Source of the DNA: a virus
Lineage: Duplodnaviria > Heunggongvirae > Uroviricota > Caudoviricetes
DNA: 9,612 nucleotides
Direction: 5' to 3' (one strand)
Virus record (IMG/VR): IMGVR_UViG_2636416140_000002
Under the pieces are notes generated by a model, which saw only the letters and a list, made by a program, of their open reading frames with translations, was not told the DNA's origin and did no database searches. This document shows, one piece after another, positions 1 to 9,612 of this stretch (the stretch's first letter is position 1; every line of letters starts with the position of its first letter). The translations under genes were made by a program, and so were the position numbers.

Positions 1-533
1 GAAAAACCAGAGATAAGACAGCGCCAAAATATAAAGCGTTAGACATGACAGAGCTTTCCCTAAAGGTGGCAATCAGAACGATAGACCGACACGTAGGGGA
101 AGGATACGCGAAGGAACATCCCGACCTGATAAGCGCATTCATGACCACAGCAGCGGCAAACTTTGCCACGCTGACAGAACGGGAGATTGCCGAAGCGGAA
201 CAGGTAACAACCATCAACGTTAAAACCGGAGAGGTGGAATCATGAGCGAACCAAAATTTGGTGAAAAACTTTACAAGCACAACGGACGGATCACGATTCA
301 GCAAATAAGCGCAGCTACACCAGGCTGGTGGGTTGAAACAGACGAAGGATCATCAACCGTGGCATCATGGGCGCTTTGTGTGCTTAGTTACCCTGACCGC
401 GATGTGTATCAGGATATTCTGCCTGTGATATCCACTGACAAAGGCATGAAACCCGTAGACATCAAAAACATGGGTTTTCAGTGCGTAATGCTCACTGAAA
501 AAATGATGGAAGAGATGAAAAAGAATAACGCCG
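1..533 (+). repeat. Direct repeat copy 1, apparently identical to 716-1248; truncated by the window start
   Basis: Read directly: 1-533 matches 716-1248 base for base (offset 715). Identity ends at 533/534 in copy 1 and 1248/1249 in copy 2. The repeat may extend upstream of the window. Confidence 0.9.
45..245 (+). CDS. Hypothetical small protein (66 aa from ATG 45), copy 1; frame is open to the window start, so the true start may lie upstream
   Basis: ORF with decent codon usage; its stop overlaps the next ORF's start (ATGA at 242-245), suggesting translational coupling. Identical second copy at 760-960. No recognisable family. Confidence 0.5.
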   Translation: MTELSLKVAIRTIDRHVGEGYAKEHPDLISAFMTTAAANFATLTEREIAEAEQVTTINVKTGEVES

Positions 534-2255: not shown

Positions 2256-3413
2256 ATGCCGAGAATAATCGAATTACGCCAGCAGAAAACCGCCATTAAA
2301 AATCAGATGCGCGACATGCTGGAGAACGCGGAAAAAGAAAACCGCAGCCTTAACGATGCAGAGGGCGCAAAATTTGACGAATTACGCGCTAAAGCTGAAT
2401 CCCTCGATAAAGACATTTCCCGCCTTGAAGCCATTGCAGACGAAGAGCGCAGCAAGCCAGGTAAAAGCAGTCAGACCACTGACCCCGCAGAACTCCGCAA
2501 CTACATTCTGACAGGTGAAACCCGCGCATTAAGTACAGGCGTTCCCGCTGATGGTGGTTATACCGTTATCCCTGAACTGAACACCGAAATCATGCGAATG
2601 CTGGCGGATGAATCCACCATGCGCCGCATCTGTACCGTGAAGAAAATCAGCAGCAACGAGTTTAAGCAGCTTGTTTCCGCTGGCGGTGCGACCGTTAACC
2701 ACGGTGAAGAGGGTAAGGCACGCGAACAGACCAGCACCCCGCAGATTAACGAGGTGAGCATCAAGCTGTATCCGGTCTATGCGTACCCGCGCACCACACA
2801 GGAAATCGTGGATTTTTCCGATGTGGACATCCTTTCATGGCTGACGGGTGAGATTGGCGACACCTTCACGGAAACCGAAGAAAGCGATCTGGTTGTGGGC
2901 GACGGTGACAAAAAAGCAAAAGGTTTTTTATCCGTACCCCGTGCAGAGAAGAACGACAAAGAGCGTGATTTTGGTACGTTGCAGGTAATTAAACCTTCCG
3001 AATCTCTGGCGTGGACATCTGCGGACCCGCTGATCGACCTGAAATTTGCATTACGTAAAAAATACCGCAAAAACGCGGTCTGGGTGGTTAACTCCACGAC
3101 GGCGGCAAAACTTCAGAAGGTGAAGAACGCGAACGGTGATTATATCTGGCGCGACCGTTTACAGGCGGGTGATCCTGATACGTTGCTGGGCCTTCCGGTC
3201 GAATATCTGGAGTTTATGCCTGATAACGTTATTGCCCTGGGTGACTTCAAACGCGGTTACTACATTGTTGATCACGAAACAGGTGTTCGCACCAGACCGG
3301 ACAACCTGACAGAACCAGGATTCATCAAAATTTTCACGCAAAAATATTTAGGCGGTGGCGTGGTGGATTCGAACGCGATCAAGATTCTGGAACTGCCGGA
3401 AGACGACGATTAA
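2256..3413 (+). CDS. Phage major capsid protein, HK97 family, with N-terminal scaffolding (delta) domain
   Basis: 385 aa from ATG 2256 (ORF track starts at TTG 2211). Coiled-coil-like N-terminus (ELRQQKTAIKNQMRDMLENAEKENRSLNDAE...) followed by an HK97-fold-like body; AGGA 10 nt upstream of ATG. Confidence 0.92.
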   Translation: MPRIIELRQQKTAIKNQMRDMLENAEKENRSLNDAEGAKFDELRAKAESLDKDISRLEAIADEERSKPGKSSQTTDPAELRNYILTGETRALSTGVPADGGYTVIPELNTEIMRMLADESTMRRICTVKKISSNEFKQLVSAGGATVNHGEEGKAREQTSTPQINEVSIKLYPVYAYPRTTQEIVDFSDVDILSWLTGEIGDTFTETEESDLVVGDGDKKAKGFLSVPRAEKNDKERDFGTLQVIKPSESLAWTSADPLIDLKFALRKKYRKNAVWVVNSTTAAKLQKVKNANGDYIWRDRLQAGDPDTLLGLPVEYLEFMPDNVIALGDFKRGYYIVDHETGVRTRPDNLTEPGFIKIFTQKYLGGGVVDSNAIKILELPEDDD

Positions 3414-3423
3414 CAGCATACAG

Positions 3424-3452
3424 AAGGGGCTTAAAAGCCCCTTTAGTGTTTT
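3424..3452 (+). terminator. Hairpin immediately after the capsid gene (partial terminator or mRNA-stabilising stem-loop)
   Basis: AAGGGGC (3424-3430), loop TTAAAA, GCCCCTT (3437-3443), then TAGTGTTTT. The U-tract is interrupted, so read-through into the protease gene is likely. Confidence 0.5.
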
Positions 3453-4025
3453 ATGGGTGAAAAAATTATGAAGAGTATGGAAATCCGGTCATCGGAAATC
3501 ACCACCAGCGCCAGCAACACGCTTACAGGCTACGTTGTTCGCTGGGATAACCTTTCAGAGCTGCTATGGGGGGAGTTTTACGAAAAATTCCAGCGGGGAG
3601 CGTTTACTGAATGGCTTGCGGCGGGTAATGACGTTCGCGGCCTGTATGAGCATGACCACAGCATGTTACTGGGGCGCACCCGTTCCGGCACGCTGAAACT
3701 GGAAGAGGACGAAACAGGGTTACGCTTTGAACTGACCCCACCGGATACCAGTACAGGGCGCGACGTTATCGAACTGGTTAAGCGTGGGGACATCTCGGGG
3801 ATGAGCTTTGGCTTTCGCTCCCGTAAGGATGTATGGGATACCACAACAGATCCATGCGTGCGCACCGTGCTGGTGGCGGAACTGTACGAAATTACCGTTA
3901 CATCGGTACCGGCTTACCCCGATTCCGGCGTGGAGCTGGCCCGCCGTTCCCTGTATGAGCAGCACCCCGAAAAAATGCCGCGTGCGGATAATCGCCGCTG
4001 GTGGGCGGATTTAGCGGGGGTGTGA
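3453..4025 (+). CDS. Phage prohead (maturation) protease, HK97 family
   Basis: Motifs typical of HK97-type prohead proteases (GYVVRW..., EHDHSMLLGRTRSGTL, GMSFGF). Alternative starts at ATG 3468 and 3477; none has a clear SD. Confidence 0.9.
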   Translation: MGEKIMKSMEIRSSEITTSASNTLTGYVVRWDNLSELLWGEFYEKFQRGAFTEWLAAGNDVRGLYEHDHSMLLGRTRSGTLKLEEDETGLRFELTPPDTSTGRDVIELVKRGDISGMSFGFRSRKDVWDTTTDPCVRTVLVAELYEITVTSVPAYPDSGVELARRSLYEQHPEKMPRADNRRWWADLAGV

Positions 4026-4026
4026 T

Positions 4027-5238
4027 ATGTGGCCTTTCAGAAGAAAAAAAGAGCAGCGCAGCATGACGCTTGATGAGTTTATGGCGCTGGCTGGCACATC
4101 GAACACGGGGGCGGGTGAGTACGTATCATCGGGGACAGCGGAATCACTGCCCGCCGTCATGAACGCCGTCACGGTCATCTCTGAGGCGGTGGCTACCATG
4201 CCGTGTTACCTGTACCTGGTACGCAATGAGAAGGGGAAGGAGGCCCGAGAGTGGCTTGATTCTCATCCGGTCGATCACATCCTCAACGAGCGCCCGAACG
4301 CGTGGCAGACTCCCTACCAGTTTAAGCGAATGATGATCCGCCACTGCCTGTTAAACGGTAATGCTTATGCGGTGATTCAGTGGGGGCGTGATGGTTTTCC
4401 GGTGGCTTTACATCCTTACCCGCCGCAGTCGGTGAACGTGGAGCAGACAGGCGAACACAACTGGCGCTACTGCATCACTGACGCCTACACCGGAAACACC
4501 CGCAACTATTTACCGTGGGAGGTTCTCCACCTTCGTTACTCCACGGATGACGGTTTTATGGGGCGCTCACCTGTAACCATCTGCCGCGAATCGCTGGGGC
4601 TTGGGCTGGCCCAACAACGCCACGGCGCGAGCGTGATGCGTGATGGCATGATGGCGGCAGGGGTTATCACGTCAGGCGAATGGCTGGACGGCGTGAAGGG
4701 CAAACAGGCATTAGCCGCACTGGAACGCTACAAAGGGGCCAGAAACGCCGGAAAAACGCCCATCCTTGAAGGGGGTATGAGCTATCAGCAGCTGGGCATG
4801 AGTAATCAGGATGCTGAATGGCTGGCCTCCCGTCGCTTCACCATTGAAGACATCGCCCGAATGTTCAACGTCTCGCCGATTTTTTTGCAGGAATACAGCA
4901 ACAGCACCTACAGCAATTTCAGCGAGGCAAGCCGCGCATTTCTCACCATGACGATGCGCCCGTGGCTGGCGAACTTTGAGCAGCAGATAAAAAACGCCCT
5001 GCTGGTGGCCTCGCCTGTACCTGGTATCCGGTATCAGGTGGAGTTTGACAGCGCGGACCTGTTACGGGCCACACCAGGCGAACGCTTTGCCACCTATGAA
5101 CGCGGCATCAAATCCGGCGTTATGTGCCCGAACGAAGCCCGCGAACGTGAAGGGCTGTCCCCGCGTGATGGTGGTGATGAGTTCAGCCAGGCATGGAAAC
5201 AGGAAGTAAAAATCAGCGAGGGAGAAAAACCGGAATGA
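4027..5238 (+). CDS. Phage portal protein, HK97 family
   Basis: 403 aa. Start is 1 nt after the protease stop, with a GGGGG SD. Central and C-terminal regions look like HK97-type portals; acidic C-terminal tail. Alternative start ATG 4063. Confidence 0.92.
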   Translation: MWPFRRKKEQRSMTLDEFMALAGTSNTGAGEYVSSGTAESLPAVMNAVTVISEAVATMPCYLYLVRNEKGKEAREWLDSHPVDHILNERPNAWQTPYQFKRMMIRHCLLNGNAYAVIQWGRDGFPVALHPYPPQSVNVEQTGEHNWRYCITDAYTGNTRNYLPWEVLHLRYSTDDGFMGRSPVTICRESLGLGLAQQRHGASVMRDGMMAAGVITSGEWLDGVKGKQALAALERYKGARNAGKTPILEGGMSYQQLGMSNQDAEWLASRRFTIEDIARMFNVSPIFLQEYSNSTYSNFSEASRAFLTMTMRPWLANFEQQIKNALLVASPVPGIRYQVEFDSADLLRATPGERFATYERGIKSGVMCPNEAREREGLSPRDGGDEFSQAWKQEVKISEGEKPE

Positions 5239-5573
5239 ACATAGGGCGACTGCGTGACAGGGTAACGATTCAGACCCTGAAACAGACCAGGGATATAACC
5301 GGCGAAATACTCGAAACGTGGGAGGACGGTCACACACTCTGGGCAAGCGTGAACATGATCAGCAGCAAGGAGGCCATTTCATCGGGTGCAGAGCTGGCGA
5401 TTGGTACCGTAAGGATCTGGATACGGTACCGGAAGGACATCAACGCCACCAGCCGGATAAAGGTCAGTACGGGGCCGCTGGCGGGGCGTGTACTGAATAT
5501 CATCGGGCAGCCGCTGCCGGATGCCGCCAGGACACGCCTTGAAATTCTTTGTCGTGAGGGCGCGGAAAAATGA
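5235..5573 (+). CDS. Head-tail adaptor / head-closure protein (head-tail joining family)
   Basis: ATG 5235 overlaps the portal stop (ATGA). 112 aa with a pattern typical of phage head-tail joining proteins (RDRVTIQ..., ...WASV..., ...RIWIRYR...). ORF track's longer start at 5193 is less likely. Confidence 0.75.
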   Translation: MNIGRLRDRVTIQTLKQTRDITGEILETWEDGHTLWASVNMISSKEAISSGAELAIGTVRIWIRYRKDINATSRIKVSTGPLAGRVLNIIGQPLPDAARTRLEILCREGAEK

Positions 5574-5866
5574 CAGAAGAACTTATCACCCTGGAAGAAG
5601 TGAAACTCCATTGCCGCATCGATGGCGACGAGGAAGACCAGTTAATCAGCGGATACATTGCCGCATCGCTTGAGGCGTGCCAGATACATATAGGCAGGCG
5701 CTTTGATGACGGGCTGGAGTTCACGCCAGCCATAAAGATTGGCTGCATGATGTTTATCGCTCACCTGTACGAGAATCGCCAGCTGGTAGCGGATAACGCA
5801 AAAACGCGCGTACCCATGACGATTGGCGCGCTCTGGACGGCTTACCGTGATGTGGGGGTGTACTGA
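5570..5866 (+). CDS. gp6-like head-tail connector protein
   Basis: ATGA overlap with the upstream gene. N-terminus ITLEEVKLHCRIDGDEEDQLISGYIAASLEACQ is characteristic of gp6-like connector / DNA-packaging proteins. Confidence 0.82.
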   Translation: MTEELITLEEVKLHCRIDGDEEDQLISGYIAASLEACQIHIGRRFDDGLEFTPAIKIGCMMFIAHLYENRQLVADNAKTRVPMTIGALWTAYRDVGVY

Positions 5867-6306
5867 TGCCGTGGCAACCATTAAGACGATGCACAGAACC
5901 AGGCTGTAACAGGCGCGTGAAGTCCGGCAAGTGTGAGGAGCACAGGCGGGCGGCATGGCGTGCAGAGGATGCCAGACGAGGACACCGCCGCGCGCGTGGG
6001 TACTCCAGACAGTGGGACAAATACCGCGCCATGTATCTGAGTAAAAACCCGTTATGCGTGCGATGCCTTGAGAAGGGGATATATACGCCCGCCGTGGTGG
6101 TGGATCACATTATCCCGATTAATGGCGGTGATGATGTTCTCTTCTGGCCCGAATGGAACCATCAACCATTGTGCCAGGCGTGTCATAACCAGAAAACGAA
6201 ATGGCTTGATCCGGCAACAAAAAGCAAGCGTGCCGCAGGTGGATTTCATGAAGAGGAAGAACGGGCCGCTAACCGCAATAACTGGATGTATGACGCTGAT
6301 GAATGA
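5866..6306 (+). CDS. HNH endonuclease (packaging-associated, adjacent to terminase)
   Basis: Cys-rich N-terminus (C..PGC...GKCEEH) and HNH core (VVDHIIPINGGDD...NHQPLCQACHNQKT). TGATG overlap with the connector gene. Position just upstream of terS is typical of cos-type HK97-like systems. Confidence 0.9.
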   Translation: MPWQPLRRCTEPGCNRRVKSGKCEEHRRAAWRAEDARRGHRRARGYSRQWDKYRAMYLSKNPLCVRCLEKGIYTPAVVVDHIIPINGGDDVLFWPEWNHQPLCQACHNQKTKWLDPATKSKRAAGGFHEEEERAANRNNWMYDADE

Positions 6307-6472
6307 GCGGGAACAAAACCGCCTTATCCGTGGACTGATAAGGCAGCGTGACGCATGGAAGACACAGGAAACAGGGCATAAAGATAAAGCGTCAGGACGC
6401 GCAGAACGCATCACAGCGAAGCGATTAACCGACCGTGGCCGCGAGGTTATGGAATGTTTCCGCAATCGCTGA
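6299..6472 (+). CDS. Hypothetical small ORF (57 aa) in the HNH-terS interval; may instead be a displaced fragment of the terS 5' region
   Basis: ATG 6299 overlaps the HNH 3' end; weak SD. Sequence ...SGRAERITAKRLTDRGRE loosely resembles Arg/Lys-rich N-termini of small terminases. Low confidence. Confidence 0.3.
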   Translation: MNEREQNRLIRGLIRQRDAWKTQETGHKDKASGRAERITAKRLTDRGREVMECFRNR

Positions 6473-6542
6473 TGAGGCTGTATGACGGGGTGGGGGGCGT
6501 TTTCAGGACAAACCCGACCCCGCCTACCTGGATGACATCGCC

Positions 6543-6854
6543 GTGAAGCAGTGGCGGGAAAAATCGCGGCAGCTTGCGGAACGGGGAGACCTGACCCCCG
6601 CCGACTGGAGCAATCTGGAACTGTATTGTGTCAACTACTCCATTTACCGGAAAGCCGTCGCAGACCTTGCGGCGCGCGGGTTCAGCATTGTTAACAGTCA
6701 GGGCGGCGAGAGCAGAAACCCCGCATTAAGCGCGAAATCAGACGCTGAAAGGGTGATGATAAAAATGGCCTCCTTGCTCGGTTTTGACCCGATAAGCCGC
6801 CGTAAAAACCCACCGGAAACAGAAGAAGAGGACGAGCTTGACCGCCTGGAATAA
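6543..6854 (+). CDS. terS: Terminase small subunit, P27/HK97-gp1-like family; annotated in-frame part only, N-terminus appears frame-disrupted
   Basis: Conserved-looking core DLTPADWSNLELYCVNYSIYRKAV. The family motif appears to begin upstream of the first in-frame start (GTG 6543) as ...KPDPAYLDDIA in the same frame, which is closed by a stop at 6483-6485. A good SD plus ATG at 6454 is in the +1 frame. Confidence 0.8.
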   Translation: MKQWREKSRQLAERGDLTPADWSNLELYCVNYSIYRKAVADLAARGFSIVNSQGGESRNPALSAKSDAERVMIKMASLLGFDPISRRKNPPETEEEDELDRLE

Positions 6855-8499
6855 GTACGCAGAAGACGTAAAAACGGGCAAAATTCCGGCCTGTAAACGG
6901 CTGAAACAGGCCGTTAAACGGTACTTTTCGGACCTTAAAAGCCCCCTTTACACGTTCGATCGTGAGGTTGTGGAGCGGTTTATTGCCTTTTCCAGGGTGT
7001 GCCCGCACGTAAAAGGACCGATGCGTGGCAGACCCATTGAGCTGGAGCCGTGGCAGCAGTTCGCCTTTGCGTGCATCCTCGGCTTTAAGGTTAAGGCCAC
7101 CGGACGGCGCAAATACACGAGCGCCTTTATCGAAGTGCCGCGCAAAAATGCGAAATCCACGACCGCCGCGATTCTGGCTAACTGGTTTCTGATTATGGAG
7201 AACGGTCAGCAGGATATCTACACCGCAGCGGTGAGCCGTGACCAGGCGCGGATCGTCTTTGATGATGCGCGTCAGATGTGCCTTTTATCCCGACCGTTAC
7301 GCAGGCGGGTGAATATTCAGGCGCATAAGGTGATACACCCGAAAAGCAACAGCCTGTTAAAGCCGCTGGCAGCAAAAGCGGCAACCATCGAGGGAACAAA
7401 CCCAAGCCTTTCCATCGTGGACGAATACCACTTGCACCCCGATAACGGCGTTTATTCCGCGCTTGAGCTGGGGATGGGCGCACGTCCCGAAGGGCTGTTA
7501 TTTGCCATTACCACATCAGGCAGCAACGTCGTTTCAGCCTGTAAACAGCACTATGATTATTGCTGCCAGATCCTGGACGGCGAAGAGGTTAACGATTCAA
7601 TTTTTGTACTGATTTACGAACTGGACGACGAAAACGAGGTTGATGATCCGGCGATGTGGATAAAGGCGAACCCTAATATTGATGTTTCCGTCGATCGTGA
7701 AAAACTGGCCTCAACCATCCAGAAAGCGCGGGGTATTCCGTCGCAGTGGGTGGAGATGATGACAAAGCGATTTAATATCTGGTGCCAGGGGGCTACCCCG
7801 TGGATGGGTAACGGCGCATGGGCTGAGTGTGCCGGAACGTTCACGGAGGAAGATTTACACGGCCAGGAGTGTTACGCGGGGCTGGACTTATCATCAACCA
7901 GCGATATTTCCAGCGTGTGCTATGCCTTTCCGGTCGGTAAAACCATTATGCTGGTTTCCCGTCACTATCTGCCGGAATTTCAGCTACAGAACCCCGCCAA
8001 TAAAAACCGCGCCATCTATCGTCAGTGGGCTAAAGCAGGCTGGATACGCACAACGCCTGGCGACTGCATTGATTACGACCGGATCAGAGATGACATCATG
8101 CAGGACGCGGAGAAATTTAATATCAGGCTGGTGGGCTTTGATACGTGGAACGCCACGCATCTCAGAACGCAATTACAGGGGGCAGGTTTTGAGGTGGAGC
8201 CGTTCCCGCAAACCTACCTCAGATTCAGTCCGGCGGCGAAATCGTTCGAAGTTTTTGTTAACCGCAGGGTGATTGTGCATCGTGGCGATCCGGTGTTGTC
8301 CTGGTCGATGAGTAACGTCGTGATGCAGAGTGACGCGAACGCCAATATCAAGCCGAACAAGAAAAAATCACCGAACAAGATAGACCCGAGCGTGGCGGCG
8401 CTGATGGCGTTTGGTACATTCCAGGCAGAGCATGAGGATTTTGCTTTTGATATAAGCGACAGCCACCGCCAGAAACTGGAAGAATTTAGCGGGGTGTAA
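6838..8499 (+). CDS. terL: Terminase large subunit (ATPase and nuclease)
   Basis: 553 aa. TTG start with GAGGA SD 5 nt upstream, overlapping the terS 3' end. N-terminus AWNKYAEDVKTGKIPACKRLKQAV and ATPase region are typical of large terminases; acidic residues in the C-terminal nuclease part. Confidence 0.93.
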   Translation: MTAWNKYAEDVKTGKIPACKRLKQAVKRYFSDLKSPLYTFDREVVERFIAFSRVCPHVKGPMRGRPIELEPWQQFAFACILGFKVKATGRRKYTSAFIEVPRKNAKSTTAAILANWFLIMENGQQDIYTAAVSRDQARIVFDDARQMCLLSRPLRRRVNIQAHKVIHPKSNSLLKPLAAKAATIEGTNPSLSIVDEYHLHPDNGVYSALELGMGARPEGLLFAITTSGSNVVSACKQHYDYCCQILDGEEVNDSIFVLIYELDDENEVDDPAMWIKANPNIDVSVDREKLASTIQKARGIPSQWVEMMTKRFNIWCQGATPWMGNGAWAECAGTFTEEDLHGQECYAGLDLSSTSDISSVCYAFPVGKTIMLVSRHYLPEFQLQNPANKNRAIYRQWAKAGWIRTTPGDCIDYDRIRDDIMQDAEKFNIRLVGFDTWNATHLRTQLQGAGFEVEPFPQTYLRFSPAAKSFEVFVNRRVIVHRGDPVLSWSMSNVVMQSDANANIKPNKKKSPNKIDPSVAALMAFGTFQAEHEDFAFDISDSHRQKLEEFSGV

Positions 8500-8512: not shown

Positions 8513-8794
8513 ATGACAGAAGCCGAAATAACGGGATTAATCCGCCGCGTTGCCGGAATCAGCCAGCAGGCTGACGAACAGGCCACGCAGCCGGACAGCG
8601 TGACAGCCGAAAACTATGCGCGTGTTGTTGCTGAGGTGATGCGCCGTGATGGTATAGAACTTAATGGCGTGGATATGCGCAACATACGAACCAGAGTTCT
8701 TGAGTTGCTGGCCTACCGTCGCCGCGTGGAGATGTATCGGGAGAAGGAGAAAATAACGTACCACTGGAAGAAGCCGGAGCGGTTGCGGCGGTAA
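8513..8794 (+). CDS. Hypothetical protein (93 aa), last gene of the packaging operon
   Basis: Good SD (GAGGT) 7 nt upstream, tight spacing after terL, reasonable codon usage. Charged, likely helical; no family recognised. Confidence 0.6.
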   Translation: MTEAEITGLIRRVAGISQQADEQATQPDSVTAENYARVVAEVMRRDGIELNGVDMRNIRTRVLELLAYRRRVEMYREKEKITYHWKKPERLRR

Positions 8795-9048
8795 CTGGTT
8801 GATATTCCCGACGGCCCAAAAATGGGTTGGCTACACCCCTCACAACTACGACATTTTCGCAGTTTAATTAATGGTCAGCTTAATCGCTAACCCGCTGATA
8901 TTTTCGGAAACCTCAATTTGAGGAAGTCGGCGCGGTAACTCGCTGAACTTTAAGCAAAGCGCAAAATTGCGCTTGCTGAATAATCATTATGATTACGCAG
9001 ATGATTAAGGAATGACCGAAGGCGGAAATTCGCCTGTGGTTAATGGGG

Positions 9049-9068
9049 GAGTTGCAGATCTGCAACTC
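9049..9068. promoter_or_regulatory. Perfect 20-bp palindrome GAGTTGCAGATCTGCAACTC (contains GATC)
   Basis: Reverse complement is identical to the sequence; lies in non-coding DNA downstream of the packaging genes. Confidence 0.6.
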
Positions 9069-9117
9069 GACCATGAAACTACGGAAACTACCCGTAGTTT
9101 GGGTAGTAAGAGTAACA

Positions 9118-9157
9118 CCCAGATTTTGGGGCTTACTCGTGATACCCAAATTTGGGG
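9118..9157. repeat. Two near-identical palindromic units CCCAGATTTTGGGG (9118-9131) and CCCAAATTTGGGG (9145-9157) in direct orientation
   Basis: Read directly; each unit is itself dyad-symmetric (CCCAAATTTGGG is a perfect palindrome). Confidence 0.55.
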
Positions 9158-9301
9158 TATCAGTGGCAACCATAACGACTTTCGTTACGGTTGATGCTTT
9201 TACCCCATTGGGGGAAAGGTATTACGATAATCATAACACCTACCGAACAGGTAAAGCCCACCAGCCTGATTAACGTTTAACCGGAAAAAAATTCCGGTAG
9301 G

Positions 9302-9313
9302 TGGGGATCCCCA
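9302..9313. promoter_or_regulatory. Perfect 12-bp palindrome TGGGGATCCCCA (contains GATC)
   Basis: Read directly; immediately downstream of hairpin CCGGAA-AAAAA-TTCCGG (9281-9297). Confidence 0.5.
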
Positions 9314-9381
9314 TATCGACATTAACGCCCCTCATGAATTGGTGTGCTTCCCCCTGGAAAGATGATCCGCCTGTATATTTC

Positions 9382-9407
9382 TTGTGTCTATTTGTTCCAC
9401 GTTGTTT
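9382..9407 (+). promoter_or_regulatory. Second copy of the 10-bp-phased TTGTKY triplet, including the exact 15-mer TTGTTCCACGTTGTT (9392-9406) shared with 2025-2039
   Basis: Hexamers at 9382 (TTGTGT), 9392 (TTGTTC) and 9402 (TTGTTT). Confidence 0.45.
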
Positions 9408-9424
9408 CATACAGTGCACCGAAC

Positions 9425-9446
9425 GGTGTAGTCACTGGTGTAGTCA
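9425..9446 (+). repeat. Direct repeat GGTGTAGTCA x2 (period 12 bp), preceded by dyad CACCG-AA-CGGTG
   Basis: Copies at 9425-9434 and 9437-9446; candidate arm-type or regulator binding sites. Confidence 0.4.
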
Positions 9447-9492
9447 TTTTGCGATTTTTGGCACTTTTTGCGGTGTTAATTATTTAATTAAA

Positions 9493-9612
9493 TCAATGTG
9501 TTATGCGAAATAAGTTATATATAACAGCAATAAATAATGCGAGAATAAACGGCACGATGATCTCGGCGGCAAAACGGATACCGCAGAGAATAATGACCAG
9601 CATTCCCAACAT
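9493..9612 (-). CDS. 3' end of a minus-strand ORF encoding a hydrophobic (membrane) segment; ATG sits exactly at the window edge, so it is either a complete 39-aa small membrane protein or the C-terminus of a longer flanking gene
   Basis: Reverse-strand translation [39 protein letters not shown], stop at 9493-9495. GC-rich third positions in the first 20 codons suggest real coding. Not in the ORF track because it is under 60 aa within the window. Confidence 0.4.

Follow-up and report, generated by a model that had tools for sequence, protein, structure and literature searches.

An EcCIEDL933-type capsid-forming satellite in Shigella flexneri tqsA with a probable packaging defect

The IMG/VR record IMGVR_UViG_2636416140_000002 (9,612 nucleotides (nt), hereafter the window) is the entire draft contig ANAN01000208.1 (GCA_000815945.1), whose unique fusion protein is labelled Shigella flexneri in public records. 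A six-frame listing of open reading frames (ORFs) together with Pfam and PHROG scans revealed one uninterrupted plus-strand gene array with head and packaging functions, and the right end of the window holds a piece of the host gene tqsA. Taken as a whole, the window is very probably best explained as the right-hand 9.5 kb of an approximately 15-kb capsid-forming phage-inducible chromosomal island (cf-PICI) of the EcCIEDL933 type in S. flexneri tqsA, with a 98-bp deletion that probably disables packaging.

A tail-less head and packaging operon

The module opens with the gene for an HK97-fold major capsid protein (2256-3413, on the plus strand like all genes below unless stated; Pfam Phage_capsid, 1.6e-61). 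This is followed by a prohead serine protease (3453-4025; Peptidase_S78, 3.3e-48) and a portal protein (4027-5238; Phage_portal, 9e-91), both 100% identical to their counterparts in Escherichia coli O157:H7 EDL933. Two head-tail joining proteins come next, a head completion or closure protein (5235-5573; Pfam Phage_HCP, PHROG head closure Hc1) and a gp6-like head-tail adaptor, Ad1 (5570-5866; Pfam Phage_connect_1, PHROG Ad1). The cf-PICI papers call these two genes (5235-5866, Hc1 then Ad1) 'adaptor' and 'connector', respectively, a naming that mismatches PHROG. The operon continues with an HNH endonuclease (5866-6306; Pfam HNH, 1.7e-8; 99% identical to EDL933), a protein of 60 amino acids (aa) with unassigned function (6290-6472; phrog_3173; 98% identical to an EDL933 ORF), a 5'-shortened small terminase, TerS, of the P27 family (6543-6854; Terminase_4) and the large terminase, TerL (6838-8499; TerL_ATPase and TerL_nuclease; 99% identical to EDL933).

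These genes are closely packed. There are gaps of 39 nt between the capsid and protease genes and 1 nt between the protease and portal genes, and overlaps of 4 nt (portal and Phage_HCP), 4 nt (Phage_HCP and Phage_connect_1), 1 nt (Phage_connect_1 and HNH), 17 nt (HNH and the 60-aa ORF) and 17 nt (terS and terL). The junctions are therefore 1-17-nt overlaps or 1-39-nt gaps, except for 70 nt between the 60-aa ORF and terS. A preliminary description had placed a tightly coupled, tail-less head and packaging module in non-canonical order at 2256-8499, directly downstream of genes for a single-stranded DNA-binding protein (SSB) and a regulator. Full-length Pfam matches at those coordinates agree with this, and the two upstream genes were identified by Pfam and PHROG as SSB (1272-1682) and a PerC-family regulator (1686-1967). 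Its gene list was otherwise correct but lacked the 60-aa ORF at 6290-6472.

The gene order is not a simple circular permutation of that in HK97-type prophages, because capsid-protease-portal and Hc1-Ad1 are both reversed relative to them. For comparison, the prophage adjoining the island in EDL933 has the order terS, terL, capsid, portal, connector, head closure, tail. Proteobacterial cf-PICIs have been reported to carry the morphogenetic genes first and hnh-terS-terL last. Whether the module agrees with the published cf-PICI order had been left open earlier; we found all eight expected Pfam families, in the same order as this hallmark. We then compared 160 related loci fetched via TerL from IMG/VR and GTDB species representatives; individual islands are referred to below by L numbers where needed. 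Seven marker genes were colinear and compact in 126 of the 132 loci with enough upstream sequence, and these loci span Enterobacterales, Pasteurellales and Orbales, from Escherichia to Xenorhabdus, Proteus, Gilliamella and Pasteurellaceae.

The island is close to the prototype EcCIEDL933

EcCIEDL933, from E. coli O157:H7 EDL933, is the prototype capsid-forming PICI (Alqurainy et al., bioRxiv 10.1101/2022.09.08.507074), with a published length of 15.4 kb. The nine packaging proteins of the window are 96-100% identical to those of EcCIEDL933 (L004, EDL933 chromosome). Furthermore, 382 of 385 capsid residues are identical to PDB 9GYI, which according to a 2025 preprint is the EcCIEDL933 capsid, a T=4, 47.5-nm shell with the HK97 fold (bioRxiv 10.1101/2025.02.11.637232). 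By the published definition, cf-PICIs are 10-18 kb long and have integrase, regulation and replication modules and a packaging module, without lytic genes or a complete tail module. SatelliteFinder, which uses 11 core components and treats tail and holin genes as forbidden components, reports cfPICI in 13% of Enterobacteriaceae genomes. Judged by its sequence, the element in the window is a cf-PICI in the strict published sense and nearly the prototype itself, a member of a family already described, and the earlier proposal of a capsid-forming phage satellite is borne out by the protein identities.

The right boundary of the island lies inside the window. After terL, only a 93-aa ORF and about 720 nt without a credible gene precede the attachment-site core (attR) and tqsA, and no tail or lysis genes were found among the window ORFs by Pfam or PHROG, as had been noted before. 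The non-coding right arm (8795-9529) ends in the attR core ATAACAGCA at 9521-9529, and the 5' end of tqsA, a host AI-2 transporter gene interrupted by the island, occupies 9530-9612 on the minus strand. We found this core by joining the two tqsA fragments that flank the homologous island in E. coli CD45 (L001), where it is repeated at both island ends, 15,282 bp apart. Between the tqsA halves, CD45 carries an integrase (Arm-DNA-bind_3 and Phage_integrase), AlpA (PF05930), Icd-like genes, a RepA helicase (AAA_25) and then the window genes. Of the replication module, the window, which covers the right-hand two thirds of the island, holds only the end, with PerC, SSB and an iteron-like region. 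The left third of this copy lies beyond the draft contig, which the window represents in full. In a megablast comparison the window matched 5424 of 5426 complete E. coli genomes and 358 hold most of it, and such an excess of matching genomes over genomes holding the island fits a window that ends in a core gene.

We considered whether the window could instead be the head-and-packaging end of an ordinary complete prophage with its tail and lysis genes off the contig. The proteins are phage-like and the left end of the contig is unresolved, which would allow for this. However, host tqsA stands immediately after attR at the right end, the left part of the window is already a replication module, and all annotated relatives carry nothing but int, alpA, small genes and rep in the next 6 kb to the left. 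The left halves of annotated relatives, at the same and at other attachment sites, showed int-alpA-rep and no tail or lysis/holin genes. In addition, the islands measure only about 15.3 kb (15,282 bp in CD45, 15.4 kb published for EcCIEDL933), and the window shows neither contiguous tail, tape-measure and lysis modules nor the canonical order. A complete prophage is thus largely refuted and, in our estimate, extremely improbable.

Comparison with phage sequences led to the same result. When the module DNA was compared with 50,697 phage records, there were six weak matches, none of which was a tailed-phage genome of standard size: three records of 10.7-16.5 kb, two fragments of 1.6-3.8 kb, and one match at the end of a 106-kb Klebsiella record. 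The three records of 10.7-16.5 kb, although deposited as phages, are evidently satellites. TerL is 69-82% identical to the satellite-like records and at most 36% identical to real tailed phages, so that the packaging genes are distinct from phage genes, as is characteristic of cf-PICIs. The preliminary description had named two observations that would speak against a satellite, namely tail or lysis genes contiguous with the module in the flanks, and capsid or terL nesting in temperate phage clades. Neither was found, since the right flank is host DNA, the left flank of same-site relatives is int/alpA/repA, and TerL stays at or below 36% identity to real phages, and this supports the satellite interpretation. 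In Klebsiella phage P12620-1 (PQ569648.1, 106,503 bp) we also observed a cf-PICI packaging module at about 90,984-106,364 with a TerL 82% identical to that of the window; this record may represent a satellite co-assembled with its helper, or a chimeric assembly.

A deletion removes the terS start and a conserved block

Direct comparison of the junction between the 60-aa ORF and terS with EDL933 revealed that 98 bp between two CCCCGCC repeats are missing from the window. The retained half of this intergenic region lies at 6487-6524 (GGGGTGGGGGG ... TTTTCAGGACA), with the CCCCGCC deletion scar at 6518-6524. The lost 98 bp comprise the terS ATG, the ribosome-binding region, the first 15 codons (MARPPKAPAYLDDIA) and about 70 nt of intergenic DNA, and the missing N-terminal residues, MARPPKxPxYLDxIA, are conserved across genera. 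TerS is 118 aa long in intact relatives. The remaining possible starts in the window are a CTG at 6528, which the public annotation of the contig uses for a product of 108 aa, and a GTG at 6543, which would give 103 aa. The earlier claim of a complete capsid and terminase set therefore holds in that all genes were found, but terS lacks its native ATG and first 15 codons.

The deletion also removes a conserved DNA block. We found a 32-nt consensus, AATTTTTACGCACGGCAATTTTTTTGAAAATA (search allowing up to 6 substitutions), upstream of terS in 143 of 153 related loci, including loci in which TerS identity falls to 65-70%. Of the loci with more than 75% TerS identity, only the window and S. flexneri SFBU1023 (L087) lacked it, and the block was not found elsewhere in the window on either strand. 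We infer that it is a cos or terminase-recognition site, with the stretch CACCGAACGCCTCCTCAAATTTTTATGCACGG... of the deleted DNA as the candidate cos. HNH endonucleases assist terminase in HK97-type cos packaging, and the arrangement HNH-cos-terS is also found in HK97-type phages.

Further evidence came from LR881103.1 ('Escherichia phage vB_KppS-Ant', 16,548 bp), a linear, virion-derived record with cf-PICI architecture. Its gene order is terS, terL, int, regulator and primase, and then capsid through HNH, and the sequence flanking its end-to-start junction is nearly identical to that in the cf-PICI of Klebsiella pneumoniae ATCC 13883 (L101). The record ends just to the left of the conserved block and starts just to its right, with about 70 nt missing between, as expected if the physical DNA ends lie inside the block. 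Together, the conservation of the block, the ends of LR881103.1 and the lost terS start lead us to read the block as a putative cos site and the window copy as probably packaging-defective. The window does not contain the intact terS and, if the block is cos, the cis-acting packaging site that a transfer-competent cf-PICI has. A 765-aa gene of LR881103.1 is annotated as 'tape measure' and had no Pfam match.

What this would mean for the island can be stated with reference to EcCIEDL933. Helper phages HK106 and HK446 induce EcCIEDL933 through AlpA, and its packaging-module genes are each needed for transfer and none for replication; mutation of gene 1792 alone only reduced transfer severely. 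Its small capsids are encoded by the island, only helper tail genes are needed from the phage, and the adaptor and connector alleles decide which tails fit. Induction, capsid production and helper-tail dependence have been shown for EcCIEDL933 and are extended to the window on the basis of 96-100% protein identity. The 60-aa ORF is probably the counterpart of gene 1792, a number that we assigned from gene order. Two private base changes, at 6337 and 6438, were observed inside this 60-aa gene, less than 200 nt from the deletion.

In the mechanism of the family, as shown in the literature for the prototype, a helper prophage switches the island on through AlpA, and the island excises and replicates with its own rep, origin and SSB. 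The nine-gene operon then builds small T=4 HK97-fold capsids from its own capsid protein, protease and portal, and the island HNH-TerS-TerL cuts and packages island DNA at a cos site. Finally, the two head-tail joining proteins dock phage-made tails, and the particle escapes by phage lysis. In the window copy, the 98-bp deletion removes the terS start and the candidate cos and would leave capsids without efficient self-packaging. We predict that induction, replication and capsid assembly probably still work in this copy, but that efficient packaging of its own DNA does not; if the block is cos, it would be a freshly disabled satellite. The earlier statement that the element makes its own capsids and borrows helper tails is thus right for the cf-PICI family but, given the deletion, may not hold for this copy.

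Several points weigh against the reading of the window copy as a packaging-defective island. We found no mapping of the EcCIEDL933 cos site in the accessible literature, and the label cos is ours by inference; the block may instead act as a promoter or some other regulatory element. The ends of LR881103.1 may not be physical DNA ends but the result of a natural deletion or of where the depositor chose to begin the record. Moreover, the int, alpA and rep third lies off the contig, so that the completeness of the window copy is judged from its relatives. These doubts lead to the alternative that the window copy is a fully functional cf-PICI, with TerS made from GTG 6543 or CTG 6528, cos in the retained G-rich stretch or elsewhere, and a neutral 98-bp loss. 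The Pfam TerS domain (Terminase_4) is complete in the window product, even in its 103-aa form, and all other packaging genes are full length and 96-100% identical to a working prototype. The retained stretch (GGGGTGGGGGG...TTTTCAGGACA) includes the G-rich GGGGTGGGGGG, which is conserved in most loci inspected and could be the actual cleavage site. In addition, GTG 6543 overlaps the stop of a 30-aa ORF (GTGA) with GAGG upstream, and translational coupling might yield some TerS. However, a block kept in 143 of 153 loci, including distant genera, with the window and L087 as sole exceptions above 75% TerS identity, is difficult to regard as dispensable. The 15 lost residues are themselves conserved across genera, and pseudogenes accumulate in S. 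flexneri copies that share the deletion, as described below. We therefore regard a fully functional island as unlikely and prefer the packaging-defective one.

Each of the 25 best of 474 E. coli matches carries the 98 bp. No complete E. coli genome gave a hit when the deletion junction was sought as an exact 44-nt sequence, a result to be read with the caution that the low-complexity filter may mask CCCGACCCCGCC and that the S. flexneri junction differs by one base. A 103-aa TerS record from E. coli CE10 was considered as a further case of the deletion and rejected, because the CE10 gene is intact (118 aa) and the short call stems from an older annotation using an internal GTG. Among phage records, in which the intergenic region was sought at mapped genome ends, only a 1.6-kb EDL933 fragment was found. 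In Xenorhabdus hominickii (L135), the G-rich element upstream of terS is expanded into GGGGTA repeats (GGGGTAGGGGTAGGGGTAGGGGTAGGGG).

The same deletion in other Shigella copies

The truncated 108-aa TerS occurs with identical sequence in 4,623 sample blocks on record, under the name Shigella. In S. flexneri 301 (AE005674.2) and other complete genomes, the truncated TerS belongs to a copy at the roxA/phoQ site, which is the integration site of EcCIEDL933. In these phoQ-site copies (L168, L170, L171 and L172), the capsid gene is broken into parts of 275 and 109 aa, and where the window encodes its 136-aa SSB they have a gene of 53 aa. A split capsid gene and a shortened gene in the SSB position beside the same deletion are what would be expected once an element is dead, and the phoQ-site copy has the appearance of a satellite that lost its mobility and is now decaying. 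In one S. flexneri strain with a phoQ-site copy, the primase was also found to be disrupted.

The window copy, in contrast, is located at tqsA and is otherwise intact. The nearest informative sites flanking the deletion, 6267 and 6536, both show the haplotype of the intact loci L007 and L008 rather than the phoQ-site one. The deletion aside, the window departs from L007 and L008 at only 0-2 bases per 300-nt bin between about 6300 and the attR end. The deletion was either produced twice by identical slippage or transferred by a conversion tract of less than about 270 nt.

These observations also bear on the possibility that the contig is an assembly chimera of decayed phoQ-site and tqsA cf-PICI copies, with the deletion and a terminal duplication as artefacts. 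The phoQ-site copy with the same deletion is common in S. flexneri, and the contig starts with a perfect internal repeat whose duplication junction is unique to it. Against this, the haplotype on either side of the deletion, at 6267 and 6536, matches the intact L007/L008 type, a 7-bp repeat cannot be jumped by a de Bruijn assembler, and the two copies of the 533-bp repeat do not differ at all, while the phoQ-site copy is 2-9% divergent there. We consider a chimera very unlikely and retain the genuine deletion in a tqsA island.

Combining the comparative and Shigella results, we tentatively suggest, as a joint claim that is doubtful as a whole, that AACCGCCCCCTCCTCAAATTTTTAYGCACGGNAATTTTTTTGAAAATAA (32-50 nt) is the universal proteobacterial cf-PICI cos, from Escherichia to Haemophilus, and that it was lost independently twice in Shigella by CCCCGCC slippage, in the widespread phoQ-site copy and, on a different haplotype, in the tqsA copy. 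If true, recurrent loss would point to a mutational hotspot or to selection that immobilises the satellite while keeping its capsid genes.

Relationship to other systems and implications

With EcCIEDL933, the window shares the order of the nine-gene packaging operon, SSB and PerC upstream, the 93-aa gene after terL, and the absence of tail and lysis genes. It differs in its integration site, which is roxA/phoQ in EDL933 and tqsA in the window, and presumably in its integrase allele. EDL933 also has a DUF927 primase, whereas the window type uses RepA-helicase replication like CD45 and O157:H7 F6321, and the window has a shorter PerC-capsid spacer, the 98-bp terS deletion and possibly a 715-bp duplication. 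The S. flexneri phoQ-site remnants belong to the same family, with the same gene order, the identical 98-bp deletion and the 108-aa TerS call, and differ in attachment site, by 1-3% sequence divergence, in flanking haplotype and by their further decay.

Classical PICIs such as EcCICFT073 and EcCIED1a resemble the island in their int-alpA-rep left half, helper-dependent AlpA induction and similar size. However, they lack capsid, portal, connector and terL genes and redirect helper capsids and terminase, for example through Rpp. The phages HK97 and HK106 share with it an HK97-fold capsid with protease maturation, a portal, gp6/gp7-like joining proteins, the HNH-TerS-TerL logic and cos ends. They differ in having tails, lysis genes, T=7 capsids and the order terS-terL-portal-protease-capsid-Ad1-Hc1, and sequence identity between the island and HK97-type phages is low, with TerL at or below 36% to any phage record.

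The main finding is thus a rediscovery of a published family, nearly of its prototype, and it demonstrates that such a satellite can be recognized from raw sequence alone. Our analysis adds a candidate cos block shared across the family, to which both sequence conservation and the termini of a virion-derived record point. To judge by the accessible literature, this candidate block is new, as is its loss from Shigella copies along with the terS start, a modest and partly interpretive advance. SatelliteFinder and other tools based on gene content would probably rate the window copy as complete for terS, and the loss of the terS start and the block therefore matters when 'functional' satellites are counted from gene content alone. 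S. flexneri is a host-restricted pathogen known for genome decay. The copies described here are a possible case of recurrent satellite inactivation in such a host.

Flanking regions and minor features

The left end of the contig carries a perfect repeat. A 533-bp segment with hypA and the greater part of hypB occurs first at 1-533 (plus strand) and again, with 100% identity, at 716-1248, and the two copies are separated by a 182-bp iteron-like region, which amounts to a 715-bp tandem duplication at the contig start. An ORF at 242-712 (156 aa) is a read-through fusion into the iteron region and is on record for this contig only. As a single piece, the repeat junction was not found among the top-ranked complete E. 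coli genomes, which match in two pieces spanning one 717-bp unit. The duplication may be a real, private tandem duplication of the origin region or an assembler loop; a greedy walk through an assembly-graph loop would give exactly this contig shape, so that the copy number is uncertain.

The iteron-like region (534-715) is AT-rich and non-coding, with AAAAGTGGGGAG(T/C)A three times and inverted arms at 560-578 and 653-671. In L001 and L002 its counterpart is the spacer between repA and hypA, and in relatives it is found 3' of repA; on these features we regard it as a candidate replication origin. The genes hypA (709-960) and hypB (957-1262) belong to phrog_1231 and phrog_27268, respectively, with functions unassigned, and are 99-100% identical to those of the O157:H7 F6321 element. 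The SSB gene (1272-1682; Pfam SSB, 2.4e-15) belongs to the replication module, and the regulator (1686-1967; PF06069 PerC; PHROG transcriptional activator families) is a PerC-family transcriptional activator.

A terminator-like hairpin lies directly 3' of the PerC gene (1974-1991). The PerC-capsid spacer is about 327 bp shorter than in CD45 and EDL933. We considered this as a second lesion and rejected it as a common natural variant, since the shorter spacer has single-piece matches at 98.6-100% identity among top-ranked E. coli genomes. A promoter and terminator scan of the whole window gave counts not above chance, and Rfam and tRNA scans of the window found no Rfam families or tRNAs. A second terminator-like hairpin, at 3423-3444 directly 3' of the capsid gene, would fit attenuation after the most abundant structural protein.

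At the right end, the last island gene (8513-8794; phrog_1561) encodes the conserved 93-aa protein of unassigned function, which also follows terL in L001, L002 and L004. In the right arm, a GGTGTAGTCA doublet lies at 9424-9446. It had been picked as the attachment core by a longest-common-substring search, as an internal 23-bp repeat, and was replaced by ATAACAGCA; in CD45 it also adjoins attL, upstream of int. An exact 16-mer, TTGTTCCACGTTGTT(T), occurs at 2024-2039, upstream of the capsid operon, and at 9391-9406, near attR, and related sequence adjoins attL in CD45 as well (L001, about 9270-9320). The 16-mer and the doublet are candidate integrase arm sites or AlpA sites.

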